From positions 3,020 through 67,019 of the forward strand of contig JANNAN010000017.1 in the NCBI GenBank assembly GCA_031384385.1: a stretch of 64,000 nucleotides of DNA, given 5' to 3'. The translations under genes were made by a program, and so were the position numbers. Positions within the stretch are counted from its first letter, which is position 1, and the number at the start of each line of letters is the position of its first letter. The notes under the pieces are model-generated. The model was given only the letters and a program-made list of their open reading frames with translations. It did no database searches and was not told the origin of the DNA. This document shows, one piece after another, positions 27,461 through 38,085 of this stretch. Source of the DNA: Candidatus Tayloriibacteriota bacterium (GTDB lineage Bacteria; Patescibacteriota; Minisyncoccia; Phycocordibacterales; PALSA-1337).

Positions 27461-27532
27461 TGCCAGATCGTCTAACGGTAGGACGTCGCTCTCTGAAAGC
27501 GAAAATTTTGGTTCGATTCCAAGTCTGGCAGC
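27461..27532 (+). tRNA. tRNA-Gln (CTG)
   Basis: Acceptor TGCCAGA/TCTGGCA (U1-A72 as in bacterial tRNA-Gln). Anticodon stem TCGCT/AGCGA with loop CTCTGAA. T-arm TTTGG-TTCGATT-CCAAG. Confidence 0.8.
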
Positions 27533-29085
27533 AATTTCGCAAAAATCGCAGAATCGCCGAAAAAAGGCGAAGGGGTCGCAGAATGAGGAGGGCGGGGCGG
27601 AATTCCCCCCTGAAACACCCCTTCCGCCCCGCCCGCTTCCTTGTTGGCGTTTTTGGGAATTTTCGTTACAAATGCAAAAGGAAAATGCGGAGAAAAAATG
27701 AGGGTGCGGTTGTGGACGAGTGGGTTCGAACCGACTTTTTCAAAGAATGATCGAATTTTCGTAGCATCAGTACTCTCTGCCAAAATAGTGGCTTGTTTAC
27801 AGTCGTTTAGGAAATTTATGATAGGTTCGAACCGATTGCTAGAAACTTTGCCGAAAGCAGTGATTTTGTCTTTCAAAACCTGCTTTTCGGTCACCAATTT
27901 ATTCTTTGTTTCTTGATACTCTTCAAGAGTTAGGGCATTGCCAAGATATGCTGACATAAGTTTTTCTAATTTAGCGTCAACGGCTAGTGCCTCACTATTT
28001 ACTTTCTGAATCTGATTTTTTGAGGAATCATCGTCTTTAGATCGATCTTTCTCTACTTCCGCAATAAGCCAGTCGGCCACTTCACTAGACAGTGATACTT
28101 TTCTGATCTCATCCTGGATGAGTGTCGTCATAGCTTCCTCACGGACATACTTTTGAGAGCATGGGCCTTTGCGTTTGGTGCAGCGTAAATAGTTATGACC
28201 TTTTTGTGTCTCAATAGTAAGGCAACAGCCACATTCAGCGCATTTGAACAGTCCGCGATAAACATATGGTTTCAAATCACCGTCATGTTGTGGTTTACTT
28301 TTTTTGGTCATGACTTCCTGGCATATATCAAAAATTTTCTTGGTGATAATCGGCTCATGCTTGCCTTCATAAAATTCACCATGAAAAAGTATGAGTCCAT
28401 GATAAAGATTATTTTTGAGTAGATACTGATAATTTGAAATGGAAAGCTCCTTGCCTTTGTGTCCAGTCAAGCCAAGTTCACCTATACTTTTGCGGAGGGC
28501 TGATAAAGTATAATTTCTGGTAGCATATGTTTCAAAAGCTTTCTTGATGAAAGGAGCTTTTTCAGGATCGACTACAATGAGTTTTGTTTTCTTGTCGTTA
28601 AGATATCCAATCGGCGCTTTCTGTGGCCAGATGCCGTTCTTCAATTTTTGTTTGTAACTCCTCTTAACATTTTCGGAAAGATTGTCTACATAATATTTCG
28701 ATTGAGAAAAAGAGATGGAAAGCATAAATTTTCCCTGCGGAGTTGCGTCAAACCAGAAAGTTGGAAATTTTAAATCAGTAATTACACCAGTATCAACCAT
28801 GTAAATGATTTTTCCACCATCAACCGAGTTACGAGCGAGCCTGTCGGGATGCCAAGCCAAAATCCCTGAAGCCTCGCCAGCTTCTATGCGCTCCAACATC
28901 TCCGCGAAAACAGGTCTACCGGGAGTTTTGGCAGTTTGCTTCTCGATAAATACATCTACAACCTCCAGTTGCTCTTTTTTGGCGAGCTCGCGTAGCTCGG
29001 AGAGCTGGTCGGCAAGACTTCGGACTTGTCGATCCTCGGTATCGGTAGATTTGCGGGTGTAAATAAAATATTTCTTGTCGCTCAT
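27472..29085 (-). CDS. Large serine recombinase (resolvase/invertase N-domain, recombinase domain, zinc ribbon). The ORF reads through the GC-rich trailer into tRNA-Gln.
   Basis: N-terminus YTRKSTDTEDRQVRSLADQ (catalytic Ser region). Cys cluster CAECGCC...CTKRKGPC. Size 537 aa. The last ~20 codons overlap tRNA-Gln on the opposite strand. Confidence 0.8.
   Translation of the reverse strand: MSDKKYFIYTRKSTDTEDRQVRSLADQLSELRELAKKEQLEVVDVFIEKQTAKTPGRPVFAEMLERIEAGEASGILAWHPDRLARNSVDGGKIIYMVDTGVITDLKFPTFWFDATPQGKFMLSISFSQSKYYVDNLSENVKRSYKQKLKNGIWPQKAPIGYLNDKKTKLIVVDPEKAPFIKKAFETYATRNYTLSALRKSIGELGLTGHKGKELSISNYQYLLKNNLYHGLILFHGEFYEGKHEPIITKKIFDICQEVMTKKSKPQHDGDLKPYVYRGLFKCAECGCCLTIETQKGHNYLRCTKRKGPCSQKYVREEAMTTLIQDEIRKVSLSSEVADWLIAEVEKDRSKDDDSSKNQIQKVNSEALAVDAKLEKLMSAYLGNALTLEEYQETKNKLVTEKQVLKDKITAFGKVSSNRFEPIINFLNDCKQATILAESTDATKIRSFFEKVGSNPLVHNRTLIFSPHFPFAFVTKIPKNANKEAGGAEGVFQGGIPPRPPHSATPSPFFGDSAIFAKLLPDLESNQNFRFQRATSYR
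27534..27650. repeat. GC-rich tRNA trailer, family C, with a perfect 12-bp inverted repeat (GGCGGGGCGGAA ... TTCCGCCCCGCC at 27590-27632)
   Basis: Shares gaatcgccgaaaaaaggcgaaggggtcgcagaatgaggagggc with trailer B (about 80% identity). TCGCAGAAT occurs twice. Hairpin with a 19-nt loop. Confidence 0.55.
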
Positions 29086-29240
29086 GGATGTATTTTACCA
29101 AATTTTTCAGAAAGCAAGAAATATTTTTTACATAAATCAGTGCATAAACAGTTAACAACTATACTTTCATTGAGAAGCGGTCGACTTTTGCTTCCCTCAC
29201 TGGACATTGTTCACCCTATCACATATCTGTATGTCGGATG

Positions 29241-29274
29241 CTTCCCACGGTTGCAATGAGTAACCGTGGGAAGC
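29241..29274. repeat. Perfect 12-bp inverted repeat hairpin within the GC-rich region upstream of the recombinase
   Basis: CTTCCCACGGTT-gcaatgagt-AACCGTGGGAAG. The surrounding 29100-29560 is about 50% GC with a further stem GAAGCGG-aagtgag-CCGCTTC. Confidence 0.6.
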
Positions 29275-29597
29275 GCGGGAGCCGTTCGGATATGCGTCTG
29301 GAGCGCCACAGACCTACTAGAAGCGGAAGTGAGCCGCTTCGAGTCACTGTAGCCTGTGATTTGTGATGTGTGATTGCGTTCAAAAATGAAAAGTAAAAGG
29401 AGGTGAGTACCCATCTGGTCCGCAACCGCACCCTCGTTTTTTCACCACGCTTGCCCTATGCCCTCGTCACGCACATTCCCGGAAAAATAAGGATTTATGC
29501 GGGCGGGTGATGGGGTTTGATTCTACTAAAGGAAAACGTAAATTATGTGTAAAGGCAGGACTTTTAAAATTGACTAAAACATAGTATTATTACCTGT

Positions 29598-32500
29598 ATG
29601 TTTGAAGGACCTCATATACCTAATGACGAATTGGAGAAAGATAAAGTTGAATCATCTGCATCAGATGCATTAGAGGCTCCTCTAGAAGATTGGAAAAATA
29701 GAGCATATTTTCGTATAAATCTCGGTGTTCATCGAGAAAGGATTGATCGAATAGTGGAACCTCTCAAAGAGACTCATCCGGAGTGGTTCAGATCTTTTAA
29801 AAATAAAACTGGGATGGGTGAGTATTTCTCCCCCGAGCTTGTTTCGATAGTTAGAGAAGAACTTGAAAAATATAAAAAGGCACCGGAAGGCTGGGAAGTC
29901 ATTAGTACTCTAGAGGAGTTAACTGGTAAATCAGGTGGTTTTATAAGTAAGACTATTGAACCATATAGAGAAACTCATCCCGAGTGGTTTAAAGATTATC
30001 TAAGTAAGAGGTCTAAGATTCTTGAACATTACGCACCTGAACTTATAACAATATTAAAAAAAGAATTTCAAAGTTATGAATATGCTCCTGAAGGATGGAA
30101 AACAAGAAATTCTGTGGCAAAGTCACTGAATGCTACAGATTTTATAGTTCAAAAAATTGTTAATCAGTTTGAACAAATTCATCCAGAGTTGGTAAAAGAT
30201 TACATGACAAAATCAGGTGTACTCACGCATTTTTCACCAGAATTAATCCTGATTATTGAAGAAGAACTGCTAAAAGAAGAAAAAGCACCAGAAGGGTGGG
30301 AAGTGATAAGTATGTTAGCTGAATTAACTGACAGAAGTCCTTTATTAATCAGAAGAACCATTGAACCATATAGAGAAACTCATCCCGAGTGGTTTAAGAA
30401 TTATAAGACTAGATCTGGTTTATTTGAACATTTTTCTCCTGAGTTAGTTGCGGTTATTAAAAATGAATTTTTAAAAGAAGAAAAACCACCAGAAGGGTGG
30501 ATGAATAGAAATGAATTGCATGATTCTTTGGGAATCAGTTATAAGAAACTTAATCGAATGGTAGCAACTCAGAAAGAAATTCATCCTGAGTGGTTTAAGT
30601 TCTTTAAGGGCAAGGCATTAGTTACGGAGTATGTATCCCCAGATGCTATTTTATTTTTTAAGGATATCGTAGTAAAAGAAGAGGAACCTCAAAAAGGTTG
30701 GATGAGTCCAGGGGAGTTAGGAGATTATTTGAAAGTTGCTTTTAAAACTATCAAAAAGGTAGCTGTAGAGCATAAAAAAAGTAATCCAGAGTGGTACAAA
30801 CTTTATAAATCAGATAATGCGAATATGACGGAGTACTATTCTCCCGAGTTGGTTATGATCCTGGAGGATAGATTTTTAAAGCCTCCACCACCTCTGGATT
30901 GGAAGACTATAAAATCATTTGCTGTTTCTAGAAATAGTGCCGTTAAGACAATTGAGAAACTTGTAGAATCGTATAGGGAGACAAATCCAGAATGGTTCAA
31001 GAATTATCGAACAAATAATGGTGTACACGAGCATATTTCTCCCGAACTGATTTCAGTAATAGAAAATTATTTTTCTAAGCAAAGCCCCCTTAAAGGATGG
31101 GAGGTTTTACAGTCATTGATTGTTTCCACGGGAAGATCGAATAAATTCATTGAGAAATTAATATTACCTTATAGAGAAACACACCCTGAATGGTTTAAGG
31201 AATTCAGAAGTGAAGATGGCAATTTGCGAAAATATTATTCTCCAGAATTAATTTCAATAATCAAGAATGAACTTTCAAATACTGAGTTTGTTCCAGAAGG
31301 ATGGGTGACTAGGAATTTCTTCTCCAAATCTAAGGGAGTAGATGTTGATATGATCGAGGACATAATAGCGCCGTATAAAGAAAAAAATCCAGAATGGTTT
31401 AGAAAGTTTGTATCAAAAAATGGTGGACAGAAGGTGGAGTATCTTTCACCGGAGCTAGTTTCCATTTTACAAAAAGAATTGGTAGATAATATAGCTCCAG
31501 AAGGTTGGAAGGTCTTGAGAGCCCTAAGATTTTCTATTGGTATTTCAGGATCTCCAATTAAGAAAATAGCCGAACCATATAGAGATTCTAATCCTGAATG
31601 GTTTAAAACTTTCAGAAGCGAAGATGGTAATTTACGCGAATATTTTTCTCCAGAATTAGTCTCGATTATAGAAACTGAACTATTAAAAGAAGGTGAGGCG
31701 CCAGAAGGATGGTTGAGAAATACTACTATAGCCAATTCACTTGAAGTAACAAAAGAAAAAACTAAGAAACTTGCAGATCAAAGTAGGGAAGCACATCCAG
31801 AATGGTTTAAAGATTTTAGGGGGAAAGAAGGTATATTCGAGTACTATTCACCCGAATTAATTTTGATTATTAAGAATTCTATTTTTATAGAAGAAAATGA
31901 GGCGCCTGGTGGCTGGGAGACCAATAAAGGTTTACAAAATAAAACGAATTTTTCTTACTACCTTCTCGAAAAAATTGAAGAACCTTACAGACTTACTCAT
32001 CCAGAATGGTTCAAAAACTTCAGAAGCAAGACAGGTGTGTATGAGCACCTTTCACCAGAACTGGTCTCAATTATTAAAGAAGAGGCTGAAAGACGACAAA
32101 GCTATGAGAGTGAAATTTTGAATAGAGAAAATTTCGATAAAAACCTTGTCGGATTTCTTAAAGGTGTAGACTCCTCAAAAGAAGGTATCGAATTCAAAGA
32201 CCTTATCAGTGTTTTCGGCTCGTCATCTGTTTTAGATATATTGTATGCAACGCACCCAGAATTCAAAGCAGTTCCTGTTGAACGTGTAAAATCTGTTATT
32301 GCTGAATATCTTGGAAATTACTTATTGTCGCCAGGTGCTTTTTCATTAGATTCGGTTAAAAATAATTTGTCATATCTTAAAGAAGAAAATATAAAGAATG
32401 GACTGGTTGAAGTGGTGAAAGATCATTGTCTGACGTATTTTTTAGAATATAAAAAGGCTAACCATGATAAAGATGATCAACAAATATTTACCGAATATTT

Positions 32501-35066
32501 TGCTCAGTTGGAAGATCAAACAAGTAGTTTTAATAATGCTGATCTTGATTCTGTGATCAAAGAGATAACTGAATACTATCAATCTATATTCAATCTAGAA
32601 AAGGGTGAACATCTCATTGAATCGTTAAACTCCGGAAGAAGCTTCCCGGATATTTATCAGAGTATCAATATAAAGGAAATTTCTGATAAGAAAAGATTGT
32701 TGATTGCCGATGAAATGGGTGTAGGTAAGAGTGCTTCAGCAATAATTGCAAAGGAATCTCTCGGCTCAAAATTGGCGCTAGTGGTTGTACCAAGTAATGT
32801 AGTAAATACATGGGAAAAATATCTGTCTGACACAGTCGGAGAAGATGCTAAAAAGATTGGATATTTCAAGAGTGGCGAAGCGCCTCGTGTTTTGGTTGTG
32901 AATGATATAGAAGAACTGAATAATATTGATCAAAATTTATACGATTATATTCTCATTTCTCATGAGAAACTTACTGGAAAATATACTGGAGCACTTGATG
33001 TCTTGGACTACGACATGCTCATTGTCGATGAAGTTCATAAGTTTAAGAATCTCAGTAGTGCAAAACGTCCAGAACAGCTCATTAGATTAGCTGAAAAGAT
33101 ACAAGGTGATGATAAATATCTTGCACTTCTATCGGGTACGCCAGTGCCAAATAAGATTGAGGATGTGGCATTACTCTTGAGACTCCTCCATCCAGATCGT
33201 TTCGAGGACCAAGATAATAAGCAAATTGTATCAAGTGTGCTCAATGGCAACCTTTCTGATATTCGAGCTTTGCTTGTGCCATATATGCAGAGAAAAGATC
33301 TGCGAGATCACATTGAGATGCCAAAACTTGATGAGGAAGTCATACCAGTTACACTTACTGGATCAGAGAAGGATGTATACGAAGTTTTGCTTGAAGAAGA
33401 TGAACTTACTCCAACTGAAAAAATGATTACCTTGCGTCGTTTCCTTATGAACCATGAGACACTGGATATTACACCAAATATACAAAGTAGTAAGGTTGAG
33501 ACCTTGAAAGGAAAGCTCACTGAAACTTTTGAATCAAAAGATAAGGTTGTTTTGTTTGTGAATGATTATGTGAAAGGTGTGATTGAAGGCGATAATTCAA
33601 TATTGTCTAATCTTGAATTACCAGAAGATGTTGAGATTAAGGTTGTCTACGGTGAAGTGTCTCAAGCCGAGAGAGTCTCTATTCAAGAAGAATTTAATAC
33701 TGAAAACGGTAAGAAAATATTATTGGTTGTTAGTGGTCAGACTGCTGGCGTCGGAGTTGATTATACTGGTGGAGAACACATATATTTCTATAATGAACCA
33801 TGGACAAAGGCGGACAGCGATCAACAAAAAGCTCGAGTATATAGACCTGGACTTAAACACGATATCCAATCAGAGACTCTGATTACAAAAGATACAATTG
33901 AGGAAGGTATACATCGATATGTTGAGTTGAAACACCAAGCAGTCAATAAGCTTCTGAATGGTATTCCAATTACAGAATTTGAAAAAGAACTATTGGAGAA
34001 GAGTGAACAATCAGAGGGCAATCTTGAAGTGAATCCAGAACTAGCTAACTATTATTTCTCATCTTTTGATAAGATGAATAGAATTTTTGCAGCGGTTAAA
34101 GAAATGGGTGAAGAAAATTTTTGGGATTTCATTGAGAAGCATGGCGCAGAATATGCTGATTGTTACTTTGAACTTGGTAATAGAAGCTATCAAGCCAATG
34201 CAAGTCGAGTCTGTGCCACATTGATTGATTCAATGATCAAAGCAGAAAAGTCTGATCCAAAAGATCTCAAAATTATCGATATTGCATCTGGTCCCGAGAT
34301 GCTTCGCCGTCACAGTAAAGAAGATGTTCAATCTGCTATTGTCAGTGCGGATATAAACATCAATCATTTCATCAATCGAGGCACGAAGGATGCGGTAGTC
34401 GCTGGCTTTACTGAATTACCATTCCCAGATAATAATTTTGATTATGCTAATTTTTCGCTCGCATTTCATTATAGTAAATTCTTACCAAGTAAAAATGAGT
34501 ATGAACGCGCAGAAGTATTAAAGGAAATTAATCGCGTTCTCAAAGTTGATGGCACAGCTGTTATTAATATGATTTATAGTCTTGATTTCAAGGACGTTGA
34601 TAAGTTTAAAAAGCTTGTTGGTTCTTTTGGTTTTGATGTTGTAGAAGGTTATTCCGGTGAAGTGGAATCTTCGGATAATTATAGATCAAGAGTTATTACA
34701 CTTAGAAAAAATAGTGATATAGAGCAATCAGCAGAAGAAGTGCTGAAAGATATGACCAGAGAAGAAATGGATGGTTTGAAGTTTGTTAGAACGACAGAAG
34801 GCCTCAAGGATTCAAGAAAGATTGTTTCTGATTTCAAACTCAATGGTAAAAGTTTTCATATTGATTTCAATGATTCAGATAAAATAGTCGTAAGAGAGGA
34901 AAAAGGTATTTTGGAGGACGGTAAAAGACTAAAAGATAAATATGGTTCAATCAAGGATATATCAAAGGAGGAGGTTGTGAATAATAATTTTGTCAGATTG
35001 TTGGTAGGGGAAAAGCATATTCTTTTCAAGAAGCTTTCAAAAGGAGGGGTGGTTTTGGTGAGATAG
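29598..35066 (+). CDS. Giant multidomain protein (1822 aa). It has an N-terminal array of 12 tandem ~68-aa repeats, an SNF2-family helicase/translocase, and a C-terminal class I SAM-dependent methyltransferase (Methyltransf_11-like).
   Basis: Repeats have the form W..L...IEPYRETHPEWFK.Y....G..EHYSPELISII..E...APEG. SNF2 motifs DEMGVGKS (I), LIVDEVHKFKN (II, DExH), LLSGTPVPNKIEDVALLLRLLHPDRF (III) and QQKARVYRPG (VI). MTase motifs IIDIASGPEML and LPFPDNNFDYANFSLAFHY. Confidence 0.8.
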   Translation: MFEGPHIPNDELEKDKVESSASDALEAPLEDWKNRAYFRINLGVHRERIDRIVEPLKETHPEWFRSFKNKTGMGEYFSPELVSIVREELEKYKKAPEGWEVISTLEELTGKSGGFISKTIEPYRETHPEWFKDYLSKRSKILEHYAPELITILKKEFQSYEYAPEGWKTRNSVAKSLNATDFIVQKIVNQFEQIHPELVKDYMTKSGVLTHFSPELILIIEEELLKEEKAPEGWEVISMLAELTDRSPLLIRRTIEPYRETHPEWFKNYKTRSGLFEHFSPELVAVIKNEFLKEEKPPEGWMNRNELHDSLGISYKKLNRMVATQKEIHPEWFKFFKGKALVTEYVSPDAILFFKDIVVKEEEPQKGWMSPGELGDYLKVAFKTIKKVAVEHKKSNPEWYKLYKSDNANMTEYYSPELVMILEDRFLKPPPPLDWKTIKSFAVSRNSAVKTIEKLVESYRETNPEWFKNYRTNNGVHEHISPELISVIENYFSKQSPLKGWEVLQSLIVSTGRSNKFIEKLILPYRETHPEWFKEFRSEDGNLRKYYSPELISIIKNELSNTEFVPEGWVTRNFFSKSKGVDVDMIEDIIAPYKEKNPEWFRKFVSKNGGQKVEYLSPELVSILQKELVDNIAPEGWKVLRALRFSIGISGSPIKKIAEPYRDSNPEWFKTFRSEDGNLREYFSPELVSIIETELLKEGEAPEGWLRNTTIANSLEVTKEKTKKLADQSREAHPEWFKDFRGKEGIFEYYSPELILIIKNSIFIEENEAPGGWETNKGLQNKTNFSYYLLEKIEEPYRLTHPEWFKNFRSKTGVYEHLSPELVSIIKEEAERRQSYESEILNRENFDKNLVGFLKGVDSSKEGIEFKDLISVFGSSSVLDILYATHPEFKAVPVERVKSVIAEYLGNYLLSPGAFSLDSVKNNLSYLKEENIKNGLVEVVKDHCLTYFLEYKKANHDKDDQQIFTEYFAQLEDQTSSFNNADLDSVIKEITEYYQSIFNLEKGEHLIESLNSGRSFPDIYQSINIKEISDKKRLLIADEMGVGKSASAIIAKESLGSKLALVVVPSNVVNTWEKYLSDTVGEDAKKIGYFKSGEAPRVLVVNDIEELNNIDQNLYDYILISHEKLTGKYTGALDVLDYDMLIVDEVHKFKNLSSAKRPEQLIRLAEKIQGDDKYLALLSGTPVPNKIEDVALLLRLLHPDRFEDQDNKQIVSSVLNGNLSDIRALLVPYMQRKDLRDHIEMPKLDEEVIPVTLTGSEKDVYEVLLEEDELTPTEKMITLRRFLMNHETLDITPNIQSSKVETLKGKLTETFESKDKVVLFVNDYVKGVIEGDNSILSNLELPEDVEIKVVYGEVSQAERVSIQEEFNTENGKKILLVVSGQTAGVGVDYTGGEHIYFYNEPWTKADSDQQKARVYRPGLKHDIQSETLITKDTIEEGIHRYVELKHQAVNKLLNGIPITEFEKELLEKSEQSEGNLEVNPELANYYFSSFDKMNRIFAAVKEMGEENFWDFIEKHGAEYADCYFELGNRSYQANASRVCATLIDSMIKAEKSDPKDLKIIDIASGPEMLRRHSKEDVQSAIVSADININHFINRGTKDAVVAGFTELPFPDNNFDYANFSLAFHYSKFLPSKNEYERAEVLKEINRVLKVDGTAVINMIYSLDFKDVDKFKKLVGSFGFDVVEGYSGEVESSDNYRSRVITLRKNSDIEQSAEEVLKDMTREEMDGLKFVRTTEGLKDSRKIVSDFKLNGKSFHIDFNDSDKIVVREEKGILEDGKRLKDKYGSIKDISKEEVVNNNFVRLLVGEKHILFKKLSKGGVVLVR
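29688..32136 (+). repeat. Twelve tandem ~204-bp coding repeats inside the giant gene. They are divergent at the nucleotide level.
   Basis: Periodic recurrence of HPEWF(K/R), YSPEL and APEGW every ~68 aa. Confidence 0.8.
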
Positions 35067-35108: not shown

Positions 35109-35819
35109 ATGAAAAAGTTTGTTAAATTATTACAAAATCATGTTATCCTCGGTGCACTTGTTGCAACTATTTTGTTATTAGTTTTGTATTTATCTTGTAC
35201 AAATTTTAGGATTTACCTTTCAAATCATCAAATTGATCCAAATTTCATCATTGGATTTTTTACTGTGATCGCACTCCTCTTGAGTCTTATTCAGACATCA
35301 AAAGACAAGAGATACGCTTATAATCTACAACTAGTTAAATCTATAGAAGATAAAGGGCTTCTGGTTATTGCAAAGCTGATAAGTATAAAAGGTAGAAGCT
35401 TGGTTTATGTTGGCACTATAAAACAATTAAAATCCGTCTTTGGAACAAATCGGATATATCGGGATACAAATGAAGTTCTTTCTAAAACAGAAATCGAAAA
35501 AGGCATGGAACTTGTTGCGACTTATTTAGACACTTTTTTCCCTGCAATTAAAGAAAAATGGAATGATCTAACCGACAGATTAAGTGAACTTGGTACTATA
35601 AGCACGAATATCATTATTAATTATAATGAAAACTATAATCTGATTGGTACAAAAGGTTTTACAAATATTGCGTTAGATAATATAGATGCAAGTATCAAGA
35701 GAGCGGATGTATTAAATCAAGAAATTGATCAGATTACTCTTGAAATGAGAGATTCGATCGTTGGAAAAATAAATGAGTCGACGGGTGAATTTAAAAATAC
35801 TTTTGACTTTAGTTTCTAA
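35109..35819 (+). CDS. Hypothetical membrane protein (two N-terminal TM helices with a cytoplasmic helical domain)
   Basis: Hydrophobic N-terminus. No recognisable domain. Confidence 0.4.
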   Translation: MKKFVKLLQNHVILGALVATILLLVLYLSCTNFRIYLSNHQIDPNFIIGFFTVIALLLSLIQTSKDKRYAYNLQLVKSIEDKGLLVIAKLISIKGRSLVYVGTIKQLKSVFGTNRIYRDTNEVLSKTEIEKGMELVATYLDTFFPAIKEKWNDLTDRLSELGTISTNIIINYNENYNLIGTKGFTNIALDNIDASIKRADVLNQEIDQITLEMRDSIVGKINESTGEFKNTFDFSF

Positions 35820-35846
35820 GTAATAATTTTTGACTATAATCAAATT

Positions 35847-36323
35847 ATGAAATCATTTGGTGGAGGAAAAATTACACCATTACAGCTTTTACGGGAGGGA
35901 AAGGTATGGTTAGAAATATGGGAGAATACATCAAAAAAAACAACAAGTCTCCTACCTGCAACTTACTGTCTTTTTACAGCGTTAGAATTATATCTGAAGG
36001 CGTATCTTGTCCTTGAAAATAGTGAATATGCAGACGTTAAAAAATTAAAGAAACTGGGACATAACCGGGCTGAGAAAGCAGACACGGTCATATTTTTAGA
36101 CTTCTCCAGACGAGTTGTATATTGGAGGGTCTTAAAAAGGTACCTGGGAGATTTTAAAAACATCATTGATAACTTTTCAAATACATTGGGAATATTTAAG
36201 TATGTTTGGAAATTTCCACGAATGGAAATACTTTCTACTCTTGAAAAGTACAAGGAAGGTAAACGAATACTCATTTTACATAATCAAACAGAAGTTAGAA
36301 GTCTTCTAAAGCTTTCATCTTAG
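35847..36323 (+). CDS. Hypothetical protein, possibly HEPN-like
   Basis: ALELYLKAYLVL...KKLGHNRAEK helix pattern reminiscent of HEPN. Weak. GC-richer composition than the flanking genes. Confidence 0.3.
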   Translation: MKSFGGGKITPLQLLREGKVWLEIWENTSKKTTSLLPATYCLFTALELYLKAYLVLENSEYADVKKLKKLGHNRAEKADTVIFLDFSRRVVYWRVLKRYLGDFKNIIDNFSNTLGIFKYVWKFPRMEILSTLEKYKEGKRILILHNQTEVRSLLKLSS

Positions 36324-36332
36324 AATCTATAA

Positions 36333-36539
36333 ATGAACATCATGAAAAACCTTTCCATCAACAAAATAATCCTCTCAGACAGAGACGCCTACAAAACCAT
36401 CTACTGCATGAGCCCAGAGTATAAACGAGGAGCAGAAAAAGCCCTGGATGTTGAACACGCATATTACTCGAATGCTTTGGAAGGCTGTAAGATTGACCGA
36501 ATAGAATTTGAAAAGCTGGCAGAAAGCATAGCGGCATAG
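36333..36539 (+). CDS. Small hypothetical protein (68 aa)
   Basis: Intact ORF with atypical C-rich third positions suggesting foreign origin. Confidence 0.3.
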   Translation: MNIMKNLSINKIILSDRDAYKTIYCMSPEYKRGAEKALDVEHAYYSNALEGCKIDRIEFEKLAESIAA

Positions 36540-36622
36540 AAAATTTGTTGACTCAAACTATTCTGGTATACTATCAACACTACGGCTTCGGCCCGACTCC
36601 GCCTCAGCGGGGGTAAAAACAA

Positions 36623-37177
36623 ATGGAAAATAAAGAACTTAAAAATATAGCTTTCATAGACGGACAAAACCTGTATATGAATACTGCCAAAAAGGAAAAG
36701 AATTCTTGGCTCATCGACCTTGCCCGTTTTCACGTTTATTTACAGAAGAAATATAATGTCGATAAGGCATACTACCACCTCGGTTACGTGCAGCCTGAGA
36801 ACAATGACCTTTATGAAGAAATTCAAAAGACTGGATTCATCCTACTTTTCCGTTTACACAATCCTGCCATGGTCGGTAAAAAGAAAGGCAATGTAGATTC
36901 GGACATCATCTTCAATGTTATGAAGAGGCTCTACAAAAAGGAGGAATTTGATAAAGTCGTGCTTGTTTCAGGTGATGGAGACTACAAGCTACTGGTTGAT
37001 TTTCTTATTGAAGAAAATAGATTTGAAAAAATACTCTTTCCAGATAGGCAGTACAGATCATCTCTCTACAAAGAACTCACTAACCTATACTTTGCATATT
37101 TGGATGATGAGGATATAAAAAGCAAAATTATCAAAATTAAAGAAGAGGATTCGGATAAAAAGAAAAGGGTGCCTTAG
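36623..37177 (+). CDS. NYN-domain (LabA-like) predicted RNase
   Basis: AFIDGQNL, VDSDI and LVSGDGDY acidic motifs typical of the NYN/PIN-like fold. Confidence 0.6.
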   Translation: MENKELKNIAFIDGQNLYMNTAKKEKNSWLIDLARFHVYLQKKYNVDKAYYHLGYVQPENNDLYEEIQKTGFILLFRLHNPAMVGKKKGNVDSDIIFNVMKRLYKKEEFDKVVLVSGDGDYKLLVDFLIEENRFEKILFPDRQYRSSLYKELTNLYFAYLDDEDIKSKIIKIKEEDSDKKKRVP

Positions 37178-37520: not shown

Positions 37521-37733
37521 ATGCAAGAGAAAATAAAAAATGATGTAAGTAAATATAGAATAGAGGTAGGTGTGACACAAGAGGATCTTGCATCCAAGGT
37601 CAGTGTGAGTAGGCAGACTATCATTGCCTTGGAGAAGGGAAACTATACACCTTCAATTTTACTAGCTCTTAAAATCGCTGGTTTCTTCAAGATGCCTGTC
37701 GAGAAAATATTTAAAATTTCTTATGAAAAATAA
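37521..37733 (+). CDS. XRE-family helix-turn-helix transcriptional regulator
   Basis: VGVTQEDLASKVSVSRQTIIALEKG is an HTH_3 motif. Confidence 0.7.
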   Translation: MQEKIKNDVSKYRIEVGVTQEDLASKVSVSRQTIIALEKGNYTPSILLALKIAGFFKMPVEKIFKISYEK

Positions 37734-38085
37734 TCTAAAAGAATCTATTGTTACTGTTGGCCTTGTCATCACAGCGGTATTACTTTTGAATCCATTTCAT
37801 TTTTGGATGCCGGATATGATGGTGATGAGCATGCTCGCTATAATTCTCGTTCTTTTCGCTATATTTGCAAGTTTTATTCTTAGAGAAAAAACTATTGATG
37901 AAAGAGATACTCAGCATCGAACACTTGCTGGTCGGAATGCTTTTCTGGCAGGATCTGCAGTACTCATCCTTGGTATCCTTGTTCAGGGATATTCACATAA
38001 AGTTGATGAATGGTTGATAGTCGCTCTTATATTCATGATAGTAGCTAAAATAGGTACTCGTATTTGGAGTGACAGAAATCTTTAA
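37723..38085 (+). CDS. Small membrane protein co-encoded with the XRE regulator
   Basis: Three TM helices. Overlaps the XRE gene stop. Confidence 0.4.
   Translation: MKNNLKESIVTVGLVITAVLLLNPFHFWMPDMMVMSMLAIILVLFAIFASFILREKTIDERDTQHRTLAGRNAFLAGSAVLILGILVQGYSHKVDEWLIVALIFMIVAKIGTRIWSDRNL

Follow-up and report, generated by a model that had tools for sequence, protein, structure and literature searches.

A giant protein of Patescibacteria that joins a predicted winged-helix repeat array to an SNF2 motor and an RRP8-like methyltransferase

Gene and domain organization

The window, i.e., the whole 64,000-nucleotide stretch of DNA that was analysed, encodes a giant protein from an undescribed accessory gene family of ultra-small Patescibacteria (CPR bacteria) that occurs sporadically and stands alone. 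The most likely reading of the product is a DNA-anchored translocase, accessory and at times mobile, for delivery of a methyltransferase of a non-DNA type. The gene is an intact open reading frame for 1822 aa, and ORF and Pfam results bear out the predicted fusion of a repeat array, then an SNF2 core and then a methyltransferase. The parts are as follows.

29598..35066, + strand: whole gene, stop codon included, for the 1822-aa protein with a predicted winged-HTH (wHTH) array, an SNF2 core and an RRP8-like methyltransferase
29679..32102, + strand: twelve repeats, modelled as MerR-type winged-HTH domains (aa 28-835)
29679, 29880, 30084, 30285, 30486, 30687, 30888, 31086, 31290, 31494, 31698 and 31902, + strand: starts of the repeat units
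32103..32654, + strand: family-specific linker (aa 836-1019, acidic, pI 4.6), conserved in the family alignment
32655..33977, + strand: SNF2-family ATPase core with both RecA-like lobes (aa 1020-1460), from Pfam, the SSO1653 match and motifs
34020..34709, + strand: RRP8/nucleomethylin-like class I SAM methyltransferase (aa 1475-1704), with a three-helix N-terminal bundle and a Rossmann fold
34710..35063, + strand: basic C-terminal alpha/beta domain (aa 1705-1822, pI 9.1), conserved in family alignments

The linker carries the pattern FGSSR.VDILY..RPEF.G.PV..VKG..A.YLG.FL in the family alignment. It has no PDB match at E<=10 and no Pfam match, and relatives outside the giant-protein family were not detected. 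In a confident model, the C-terminal domain and the methyltransferase pack together as one rigid body. Genes of this family are among the largest in the genome-reduced CPR bacteria.

The N-terminal repeat array

The expression [HN]PE[WL][FYV][KR] finds exactly 12 anchors (aa 60-801) at a spacing of 66-68 aa, and the units tile aa 28-835 without gaps, so that the unbroken 12-fold array of ~68-aa units that had been proposed is present. In a six-frame translation of the window, a family HMM derived from 769 units picks out all 12 (i-E 2e-19 to 2e-26) and has no further match. Thus, the repeats are far beyond chance. Identity between units averages 38% for protein (range 26-58%) and 54% for DNA, and TRF does not detect repeats in the array. 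The copies are therefore old, as expected from the original prediction of an ancient repeat rather than a recent duplication. W5, HPEWF and YSPEL are strictly conserved in the unit, and about 12 positions per unit are variable, with high entropy. The signature motifs PEGW, HPEWFK and YSPEL are confined to this repeat family.

It had also been claimed that the repeat belongs to no recognised family. Pfam reports nothing in aa 1-900 of the window protein at E<=1, and its repeat is covered by no curated Pfam or NCBIfam model. The consensus unit remains below threshold for Pfam MerR_1 (15.5 bits, cutoff 21.6) and HTH_17 (16.3 bits, cutoff 27); the sole model reached is the generic HTH_29 (28.4 bits, cutoff 28.1). 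PF26109 (WHD_BrxR) and PF26137 (Toxin_SdpC) were rejected as the family of the repeat, as their precomputed matches in homologues are only faint. Sequence searches of the PDB with the repeat gave no match to any solved wHTH domain.

The fold is nevertheless recognizable in an AF2 model of three units (pLDDT 94.8, pTM 0.73). DSSP assigns the order strand, helix, turn, helix, beta hairpin (wing), helix to all three modelled units, and the unit superposes closely on solved minimal MerR-type wHTH domains (BldC/RacA/Par/Xis-like). The top structural matches are all dsDNA-binding domains, some of them solved on DNA. At the level of modelled structure, the N-terminus is thereby shown to be twelve covalently joined minimal MerR-type winged-HTH domains. 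The pTM for three units suggests, in addition, a defined geometry between neighboring modelled units.

Conserved basic positions of the unit map to helix 2 and the wing, and variable positions map to helix 1 and the N-terminal half of helix 2. The array of the window protein is net acidic (charge -10, pI 6.1); units across the family are near neutral on average. Given that there is no detectable sequence similarity to solved wHTH domains, DNA-contact residues are not transferable from BldC, Par or RacA. BldC of Streptomyces, the DBDs of pSK1 Par and RacA, and phage Xis share the fold, but sequence similarity to them is undetectable and DNA binding in the present case is predicted only. Those proteins are also single domains that form non-covalent oligomers, whereas here 12 units lie in one enzyme-fused chain.

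The SNF2 motor and the methyltransferase

The motor region matches Pfam SNF2-rel_dom (PF00176; aa 1030-1271, 69.8 bits, cutoff 24.9) and Helicase_C (PF00271; aa 1300-1418, 43.9 bits, cutoff 23.5), and both lobes align over their full length to the core of the Sulfolobus dsDNA translocase SSO1653 (1z63; E 1.8e-18). Motifs I (GVGKS, 1041), II (DEVH, 1144), III (SGTP, 1179) and VI (QQKARVYRPG, 1409) are intact, and all four are invariant in the family alignment. The SNF2 ATPase core is therefore complete, as had been read from its motifs.

Pfam places Methyltransf_11 and Methyltransf_8 matches at aa 1524-1683, and LPFPD is present at aa 1607, in line with the predicted class I SAM methyltransferase of the Methyltransf_11 type. 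The match to Methyltransf_8 (PF05148) is marginal (27.8 bits, cutoff 27); it is also precomputed in many homologues. A profile of the family methyltransferase matches 2zfu (E 5.4e-7), and the nearest structural neighbor is a member of the RRP8/nucleomethylin family. The cofactor motifs are conserved in the family. A [DNS]PP[YFWH] motif is absent from all 1822 aa, and the domain has no structural or profile similarity to DNA methyltransferases. The caution that this is not obviously a DNA amino-methyltransferase was thus well placed: the domain is closest to RRP8/nucleomethylin (rRNA m1A type). RRP8 itself methylates rRNA (m1A) in the nucleolus of eukaryotes, an activity known for yeast Rrp8 (PMC3553958). 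In contrast to RRP8/nucleomethylin, to which its identity is only 17%, the window enzyme has an unusual motif I (D-I-A-S-G-P-E) and, besides its fusion to an SNF2 motor, carries an additional basic C-terminal domain.

Distribution of the family

The core of linker, SNF2 motor, methyltransferase and basic C-terminal domain (~990 aa) is 45-54% identical over its full length in >120 proteins from distant CPR classes. The N-termini of these homologues vary, and the number of wHTH repeats, a point that the original prediction had marked for checking, ranges from 0 to 14; among proteins that carry the repeat in any architecture, copy number is 1 to 15. The alternatives found on the same core are arrays of unrelated repeat families (as in P0082, P0087 and P0183); one such cassette has a precomputed match to PF18780, which we take to be a homing-endonuclease-associated repeat. 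Conversely, the wHTH repeat was found in 1100 cluster representatives in four architectures, and the same array is also joined to restriction-type helicases and, separately, to an unannotated 250-aa domain. These comparisons show a strongly conserved core and an N-terminal array that is an exchangeable cassette.

Approximately 59 full-core loci are present among 185,579 species genomes, all of them in Patescibacteria, and all named sources of family members are Patescibacteria. One MAG encodes two copies (L027, L040), and another copy is inserted between rplB and rpsS, within a ribosomal-protein operon. The nearest homologue, P0081, sits amid clpB, rpmG, rarA, pheS and gyrB. Disrupted copies also occur (L001 and P0024/L026). 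L001 was considered as a "Rosetta-stone" split into a repeat-only gene and a separate SNF2 gene; it is instead one disrupted gene, since repeats remain encoded in its spacer and both a stop and a G7 frameshift interrupt the reading frame.

We clustered 773 flanking ORFs from the 59 loci and found no family in more than 7 of them, and no conserved synteny across the loci. Two small clusters of adjacent ORFs without annotation are present among the flanking genes. No full-core relative was found among IMG/VR viral contigs, and on this basis a viral origin of the gene was rejected. Nor was a description of the family found in the literature searched, in line with the first label of the system as "undescribed".

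Known SNF2-containing defence systems (DISARM, Zorya, Dpd, BREX helicases) give no equivalog-level match. NCBIfam scores are far below cutoff for DrmD (33.7, cutoff 610), DpdE (42.5, cutoff 500) and ZorD (18, cutoff 1500), and the best PADLOC match, ZorD at 80 bits, is confined to the helicase region. Membership in a known defence system was rejected, as PADLOC and NCBIfam yield generic SNF2 similarity only. Defence partner genes are absent from the neighbors in the window and from the 59 loci. DISARM DrmD, Zorya ZorD and Dpd DpdE share with the window protein this generic SNF2 similarity (30-80 bits), and the window gene is likewise accessory and sporadic. However, scores of 33-55 bits stand against equivalog cutoffs of 500-1500, and the DNA methyltransferases of those systems are separate genes, whereas here the methyltransferase is in the same chain. 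None of these comparisons (NCBIfam, PADLOC, IMG/VR) supports the DNA-modification, anti-restriction or defence role that had been proposed.

Recombinase, tRNA and the question of an island

A large serine recombinase (LSR) lies upstream of the giant gene and is divergent from it. The features around the gene are listed here.

27461..27532, + strand: tRNA-Gln (CTG), putative integration target (ARAGORN; Rfam tRNA 60 bits)
27472..29085, - strand: large serine recombinase, 537-aa ORF (Pfam Resolvase, Recombinase, Zn_ribbon_recom)
27650..27720, no strand: left arm of an inverted repeat, within the recombinase 3' coding region
29415..29485, no strand: right arm of the inverted repeat, within a GC-rich spacer that precedes the giant gene
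35109..37177, + strand: three downstream genes, for a 236-aa membrane-anchored ORF, a 158-aa ORF and a NYN-domain protein (ORFs; the only Pfam match is NYN)

The recombinase ORF and the tRNA-Gln gene overlap at their 3' ends, so this tRNA is a putative integration target. The recombinase region is compositionally foreign, with a GC content of 0.40-0.46 against 0.31-0.34 in its surroundings; that of the giant gene is only slightly above background. The inverted repeat brackets the recombinase alone. It is imperfect (71 nt, 75% complementary, with an alignment that extends to ~110 nt), and comparable repeats are absent around the recombinases of other family loci, save a weak AT-rich pair in L039. 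The three downstream genes are possible co-cargo. Next to the other family loci no relatives of these genes were found, except for a single weak NYN match in L030.

Neither direct repeats marking island ends nor a tRNA-derived repeat or tRNA 3' fragment that could be a far att site was found, and Rfam identifies only tRNAs in the window. A metagenome scan for an identical tRNA-Gln returned one contig, L119; it is not syntenic, and its similarity to the window ends exactly at the tRNA 3' end.

Across the family, a large serine recombinase occurs within 10 kb in 6 of the 59 genome loci, besides L118 and the window. Four loci, namely the window, L118, L020 and L018, have a tRNA-abutting recombinase with the giant gene on its cargo side, at four different tRNAs; in L118 the tRNA/recombinase arrangement is present as a remnant. 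In the other 53 loci, a recombinase is absent from the surrounding 10 kb, and several of these lie amid housekeeping genes. Adjacency is thus likely enriched, yet it is no defining association. Of the recombinase-borne island that had been envisaged, the tRNA-abutting recombinase with the gene on its cargo side stands, as it recurs in three other loci; against it are the 53 recombinase-free loci and an inverted repeat that encloses the window recombinase only. Co-occurrence of gene and recombinase across homologues, another point marked for checking, does not hold as a rule.

Predicted function

We interpret the protein as a single-polypeptide, DNA-anchored motor enzyme of an accessory, horizontally mobile, Patescibacteria-restricted family, a reading that we regard as an even call. 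By analogy with free 68-residue BldC and with Xis on DNA, the wHTH units may constitute a pre-assembled head-to-tail filament, in which successive units would place helix 2 and the wing against the duplex and together cover ~100 bp or more. The array would tether the SNF2 motor, which would translocate on or remodel dsDNA with ATP, and would position the methyltransferase on a conserved substrate. To judge by the fold, this substrate would not be a DNA amino group; the nearest precedent is RNA adenine-N1, and a protein substrate or an atypical position on DNA is possible. The fast-evolving array could then set the site of enzyme action on DNA. The enzyme may serve in conflict or maintenance, either for mobile DNA or for the host against it. 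Telling against this reading as a whole are the net acidic array, the lack of detectable similarity to solved wHTH domains, variable positions that differ between two 12-repeat relatives, the lack of a periodic DNA target in the window, the missing match to a known defence system or a viral contig, and the many homologues with no recombinase nearby.

The array itself can be read in other ways. Originally, it was suggested to be a modular nucleic-acid reader, perhaps TALE- or PUF-like. In a programmable version of this idea, each repeat would read a few bp with its hypervariable residues, and repeat order would spell a long DNA or RNA address for the motor and methyltransferase. Long tandem arrays of similar-sized helical modules, variable copy number and effector fusion are common to this array and TALE, PUF or PPR proteins. 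The array is also portable between different enzymes, and its variable positions occupy the classical HTH reading surface over a conserved scaffold. At 68 aa, however, the unit has twice the length of theirs and is modelled as a complete wHTH domain rather than a helical hairpin, and with a mean unit identity of 38% and about 12 variable positions, the highly divergent repeats have neither a small nor a two-residue code. P0202 is 41% identical to the window protein, collinear with it and also has 12 repeats. Between the two, repeats at matching positions have a similarity of 0.32 and all other pairs one of 0.33; for variable columns only, the values are 0.15 and 0.18, respectively. This lack of positional conservation between two 12-repeat relatives argues against a TALE-like code, although a changed target could also explain it; the differences at variable positions could mean that targets shift rapidly or that the array reads no specific sequence at all. 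MerR-type wHTH domains contact just one or two bases specifically and depend on indirect readout (PMC5859096), and in the DNA around the gene TRF found no periodic target. We consider a programmable reader of this kind improbable. That the array is a protein-protein scaffold or a spacer, with the SNF2 core engaging DNA unaided, seems very improbable. Its net acidic charge in the window protein, the structural look of W5, HPEWF and YSPEL, a variable surface that is not conserved between relatives and the unrelated repeats that take its place in other members would fit such a role. However, its best structural matches are all dsDNA-binding domains, its basic residues cluster on helix 2 and the wing, it is recurrently fused to DNA-acting enzymes (SNF2, restriction-type helicases), and one alternative cassette has the PF18780 match.

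Other readings concern the protein as a whole. SNF2-methylase dyads are a recurrent module in polyvalent proteins of phages and conjugative elements (PMC5512222), and the window protein has in common with these a large single chain, an SNF2 motor with a SAM methyltransferase and an occasional location on mobile DNA. It could accordingly be a DarB-like anti-restriction polyvalent enzyme, with the SNF2 motor tracking element DNA and the methyltransferase methylating bases against host restriction. The recombinase and tRNA that adjoin the gene in four loci, and the foreign composition of the recombinase region, are consistent with this. Unlike those proteins, however, it has an RRP8-like enzyme rather than an N6-adenine DNA methylase, its motor most resembles the SSO1653/compact Snf2 type, MPTase, ArdC, ParB and LPD domains are absent, it is missing from viral contigs, and its N-terminal wHTH array has no counterpart there. 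A DarB-like role appears improbable on balance. The high conservation of the core across distant CPR classes would fit a cellular housekeeping role too, such as a RapA-like nucleoid or transcription remodeller or an rRNA-methylating ribosome-biogenesis enzyme, inherited vertically and beside a recombinase by coincidence. The setting of P0081 among housekeeping genes and the rRNA m1A methyltransferases that are the nearest known relatives of the methyltransferase (PMC3553958) point the same way. Against it are the small number of full-core loci in the genome set, the lack of conserved synteny, N-termini swapped between unrelated repeat families, paralogues in one genome, disrupted copies, the copy inside a ribosomal-protein operon and the recurrence of recombinase adjacency; moreover, it is not obvious why an rRNA methyltransferase would require a dsDNA translocase and an array for DNA binding. 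We judge a housekeeping factor to be quite unlikely.

Beyond the DNA-anchored motor enzyme that we prefer, a bolder and unlikely proposal is that covalently joined BldC-like wHTH arrays are a new class of evolvable long-footprint DNA-address modules. Along with at least three other repeat families, these would be cassette-swapped in CPR bacteria onto the core of SNF2 motor and m1A-type methyltransferase and onto restriction-type helicases. The result would be a previously unrecognised system for nucleic-acid surveillance or modification in a single polypeptide, spread by serine-recombinase elements that target tRNAs. If the mechanism proposed for the preferred reading holds, these would be the first MerR-type winged-helix domains, which normally assemble on DNA non-covalently, to be hard-wired into single chains of 12-15 units as an interchangeable targeting cassette. 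No earlier SNF2 motor would have had an RRP8-type rather than a DNA-type methyltransferase as its partner. Interest would be more modest were the protein a non-specific nucleoid or rRNA factor instead. The chromatin, defence and mobile-element biology of CPR bacteria is almost unexplored, and the protein is a concrete, expressible handle on the role of SNF2 translocases in these organisms, on the targets of a bacterial RRP8-like enzyme and on wHTH arrays as engineerable DNA-binding scaffolds. For the hundreds of family members, existing annotations go no further than hypothetical protein, SNF2-related protein or methyltransferase.

The repeat array and its predicted fold

The giant gene of the window encodes an N-terminal repeat array, a linker, an SNF2 motor, an MTase and a C-terminal domain.

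29598..35066, + strand: giant gene, intact ORF, product of 1822 aa
aa 28-835: 12 repeat units, tiled gap-free
aa 1030-1271: SNF2-rel_dom (Pfam)
aa 1300-1418: Helicase_C (Pfam)
aa 1524-1683: Methyltransf_11/Methyltransf_8 (Pfam)

A simple pattern search of the window protein located 12 'HPEWFK' anchors at aa 60-801, spaced 66-68 residues apart. The family HMM identified every unit (i-E 2e-19 to 2e-26), and nothing else in the window, translated in six frames, matched it. Strictly conserved in the units are P2, W5, P-E-W-F and S-P-E-L. Between units, protein identity is 26-58% (mean 38%), codon-aligned DNA identity averages 54%, and the array went undetected by Tandem Repeats Finder. Thus, the units are old, diverged copies rather than a recent duplication, as the original prediction held; its description of the ORF, the 12 repeats, the domains and the motifs was also confirmed in every detail by the ORF, pattern, HMM, Pfam and motif checks.

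Pfam gave no match to the first 900 residues of the window protein, none of its HTH models matched the protein, and neither one-unit nor three-unit profiles matched a solved structure. For modeling, window units 2-4 were aligned with 40 three-unit segments of homologues. The AlphaFold2 three-unit model (mean pLDDT 94.8, pTM 0.73) confidently places each modelled unit in a MerR-type wHTH fold (strand, 8-residue helix, turn, 14-residue helix, beta-hairpin, 12-residue helix). Par and RacA have MerR-type wHTH domains that insert helix a2 into the major groove and touch the backbone with the wing (PMC11500499). BldC is a 68-residue MerR-like wHTH without a dimerisation domain, a length shared by the units of the window array (66-68 residues); on direct repeats it forms asymmetric head-to-tail oligomers that give protein-DNA filaments, as does Xis (PMC5859096). 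The consensus unit of the family barely reaches the generic HTH_29 model (28.4 bits, threshold 28.1), and its MerR_1 and HTH_17 matches are sub-threshold. Because the likeness to MerR-type wHTH domains is structural and invisible by sequence, we conclude that the repeat family is new in sequence and has a well-known DNA-binding fold. The claim of an unrecognised family therefore holds for the sequence, but not for the fold.

The enzymatic core

Both SNF2 lobes align to the Snf2 core of Sulfolobus SSO1653 (E 1.8e-18), and the window protein retains complete SNF2 motifs I, II, III and VI, which are invariant across the family. The 184-residue linker from array to motor is kept within the family, and nothing outside the family matched it. 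Invariance in the MTase extends to the SAM-binding positions D-x-A-S-G-P-E and S-x-D-x-N and to the 'RSYQAN' motif of its N-terminal helical bundle, which makes SAM binding and a conserved substrate probable for this domain. All motifs quoted in the original prediction were found in the window protein, and a motif search confirmed that [DNS]PP[YFW] is absent from it. In the predicted model, a basic C-terminal alpha/beta domain, some 115 residues long, lies packed onto the MTase.

Family architectures and exchange of repeats

A HMMER search with a three-unit profile, exhaustive over 1.84 billion cluster representatives, identified 1100 proteins at E <= 1e-3, of which 368 reach E <= 1e-30; the repeat family is real but small. 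The array search recovered 80 proteins with 2-15 units each (period about 68 residues). By their source-given organism names, these are from Patescibacteria except for two (one Deltaproteobacteria, one Bacteroidetes).

Four architectures among the 80 array proteins
1: array + SNF2 (+ MTase)
2: ~510-aa ResIII/DEAD/SWI2_SNF2 helicase with C-terminal array (29 proteins; P0008, P0011, P0014, P0025-P0029 and others)
3: conserved unannotated ~250-aa N-terminal domain (aa 1-250), then array (32 proteins; P0002-P0005, P0009, P0017 and others)
4: apparently array only; at least some are pieces of broken fusions

PADLOC likens the ~510-aa helicase to PbeA and to type I/IV restriction helicases. The ~250-aa domain (signature 'ILPPD...IPR...G.NDP.MMR.LSY...VNDEEGNATFV') was matched by neither Pfam nor PADLOC.

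The core query (C-terminal 988 residues) retrieved more than 120 proteins of 1013-1726 aa that are 45-54% identical at 97-100% query coverage. Half of these core homologues carry 1-12 copies of the wHTH repeat; repeat number thus varies in them, as in the array proteins. None of the 122 core homologues retrieved exceeds the window's 12 repeats; 12 also occur in homologue P0202, and 13 are encoded at genome locus L009. P0001, with 14 repeats, has a core devoid of the MTase part. The other half bear N-terminal extensions of different tandem repeats.

Alternative N-terminal repeats
~69-aa units: 'GEW...HYG...GYSYED'
~62-aa units: 'GYW...RGLDPKNLP...RFGS' (precomputed PF18780)
~74-aa units: 'AYT..AH..W..RG.FN..WL.KNGY'

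Carriers of these arrays, without the wHTH repeat, include P0082, P0087, P0183 and P0151. Since half of the core homologues bear the wHTH repeat and half bear unrelated repeats, the N-terminal array is an exchangeable cassette on a constant enzymatic core.

Distribution and genomic context

A pattern and tblastn scan of 185,579 species (one genome per species) identified about 59 loci with the full core, and every one belongs to a Patescibacteria lineage: Kaiser-, Levy-, Roizman-, Doudna-, Taylor-, Moran-, Magasanik-, Peri- and Gracilibacteria, Saccharimonadia and Paceibacterota (the titles of some MAGs are evidently wrong). Below these, matches drop to 23-27% identity and cover the SNF2 region only. 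Full-core relatives were not found in IMG/VR viral contigs. In two loci (L053, L055), the family gene appears shattered into short ORFs under table 11 and tblastn matches are nearly full length; the alternative genetic code of Gracilibacteria-type lineages is the likely cause.

When 773 flanking ORFs were clustered, no family of neighbours was shared by more than 7 of the 59 loci. The closest homologue is surrounded by clpB, rpmG, rarA, pheS and gyrB; further copies sit amid toxin-antitoxin genes or unannotated ORFs. At L001 (2194-9381), the rplB and rpsS genes of a ribosomal-protein operon are separated by a ~7-kb insertion that carries a family member (broken by a stop and a G7 frameshift), a YafQ-like toxin and a DAGK-like gene; a single MAG holds two copies (L027, L040). 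The lack of a common neighbour, the varied contexts, the operon insertion and the double copy mark the gene as sporadic, stand-alone and accessory. Small unannotated ORFs of 85-118 aa directly adjoin the giant gene in L024, L028, L032, L041 and L063, and a second cluster (122-175 aa) adjoins it in L013, L034, L040, L057, L060, L061 and L062. Such ORFs lie 8-164 bp from the gene in about 12 loci; the window lacks them.

The giant gene of the window had been placed on a recombinase-borne island, for which the following features are relevant.

27472..29085, - strand: large serine recombinase (LSR), divergently upstream of the giant gene, overlapping the tRNA-Gln 3' end
27582-27642: GC-rich hairpin, 13-bp stem (folds marginally better than shuffles, z -2.0)
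27650-27720: inverted repeat, left arm, inside the recombinase 3' coding region
29240-29273: perfect hairpin, CTTCCCACGGTT...AACCGTGGGAAG
29415-29485: inverted repeat, right arm, in the spacer preceding the giant gene

The LSR 3' end overlaps or abuts a tRNA 3' end, with the giant gene on the cargo side, in the window (tRNA-Gln), L118 (tRNA-Asn), L020 (tRNA-Gly) and L018 (tRNA-Pro). L118 encodes P0202 (41% identical) and its recombinase is a remnant; at L061 the giant gene is on the wrong side of the tRNA. The recombinase region of the window is compositionally foreign (GC 0.40-0.46 vs about 0.32), and the giant gene is only slightly raised (0.33-0.39). We looked for the far boundary of the putative island in the window and did not find it. 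An LSR lies within 10 kb of the family gene in 6 of 59 loci; the other 53 have none at that distance. The recombinase-borne island is supported in part, and we infer that the association with tRNA-targeting LSR elements is real but occasional.

The imperfect inverted repeat around the recombinase gene (75% over 71 nt; its alignment can be lengthened to about 110 nt) could mark an LSR-only minimal element, an invertible segment or a second-LSR relic, and the mobile or invertible unit could be the recombinase alone. The right arm, translated on the + strand, resembles the recombinase C-terminus (VRNRTLVFSPRLPYALVTHIPG vs HNRTLIFSPHFPFAFVTKIP). The recombinase's true C-terminus is doubtful because the ORF continues about 60 codons through the 13-bp-stem hairpin into the antisense strand of tRNA-Gln (27533-27700). 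The spacer upstream of the giant gene (29170-29400) is GC-rich (~0.46) with perfect hairpins; no Rfam family reached its gathering score there.

Possible mechanism and alternatives

The analysis shows the folds, motifs, pattern of conservation, exchange of cassettes, distribution and contexts, and from these we infer DNA binding, translocation, the methyl acceptor and the role. A single-chain, head-to-tail wHTH filament would anchor the enzyme along extended duplex DNA, the SNF2 motor would translocate or remodel, and the RRP8-like MTase would modify a conserved substrate other than a DNA amino group. The gene would be accessory and at times mobile, with a plausible function in genetic conflict. 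This reading is the best supported, and as a whole we regard it as an even bet. The yeast Rrp8 product is m1A645 of 25S rRNA (PMC3553958).

A modular nucleic-acid reader, perhaps TALE- or PUF-like, had been suggested for the array. High-entropy positions fall in helix 1 and the N-terminal half of helix 2 (12 window units; 769 family units), and conserved basic positions in helix 2 (23, 24, 28, 30) and the wing (38, 41, 46), as expected for a wHTH whose reading surface varies from unit to unit. The window array is acidic (net charge -10; family units average near neutral). Counterpart repeats of the window protein and the collinear 12-repeat P0202 are no more alike than non-counterparts (identity 0.32 vs 0.33 over all columns, 0.15 vs 0.18 over variable columns); the reading surface is either evolving fast or unconstrained. 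Because of the acidic array, the lack of positional conservation and the largely indirect readout of DNA by MerR-type domains (PMC5859096), a fixed code is disfavoured and we consider it quite unlikely. That the array is instead a protein scaffold seems more improbable still.

SNF2-methylase dyads are a known theme in polyvalent proteins of mobile elements (PMC5512222). DarB-like protective DNA methylation is contradicted by the MTase type and by viral contigs without a family member, and we rate it as poorly as the TALE-like code. A CPR housekeeping remodeller or rRNA factor, although unlikely, is a little less so; patchy distribution, swapped cassettes and insertion contexts argue against it. 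Neither the unknown fold, the reader-code analogy nor a firm mobile-island context was thus fully borne out.

The kinds of component, a MerR-type wHTH, a compact Snf2 motor and an RRP8-like class I MTase, are already known. Covalent arrays of 12-15 MerR-type wHTH domains, the combination of SNF2 motor and RRP8-type MTase, and a conserved, Patescibacteria-restricted core with interchangeable N-terminal repeat cassettes appear undescribed. A literature search found no description of the family, and a single paper that touches in passing on SNF2 ATPases in CPR restriction-modification-like proteins.

Other features of the window

Downstream of the giant gene (35109-37177) are a 236-aa membrane-anchored ORF and a 158-aa ORF, both without a family match, and an NYN-domain protein (predicted RNase; GC raised to 0.39). 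Just past the putative island (37521-38085), a ~70-aa XRE-type HTH ORF overlaps the start of a 120-aa membrane protein; small XRE ORFs also occur near the giant gene in L013, L020, L050 and L061. At 1799-1886, near a tRNA-Ser(GCT) at 323-411, ARAGORN called a tRNA-Ser whose anticodon, ACT, is atypical of bacteria.
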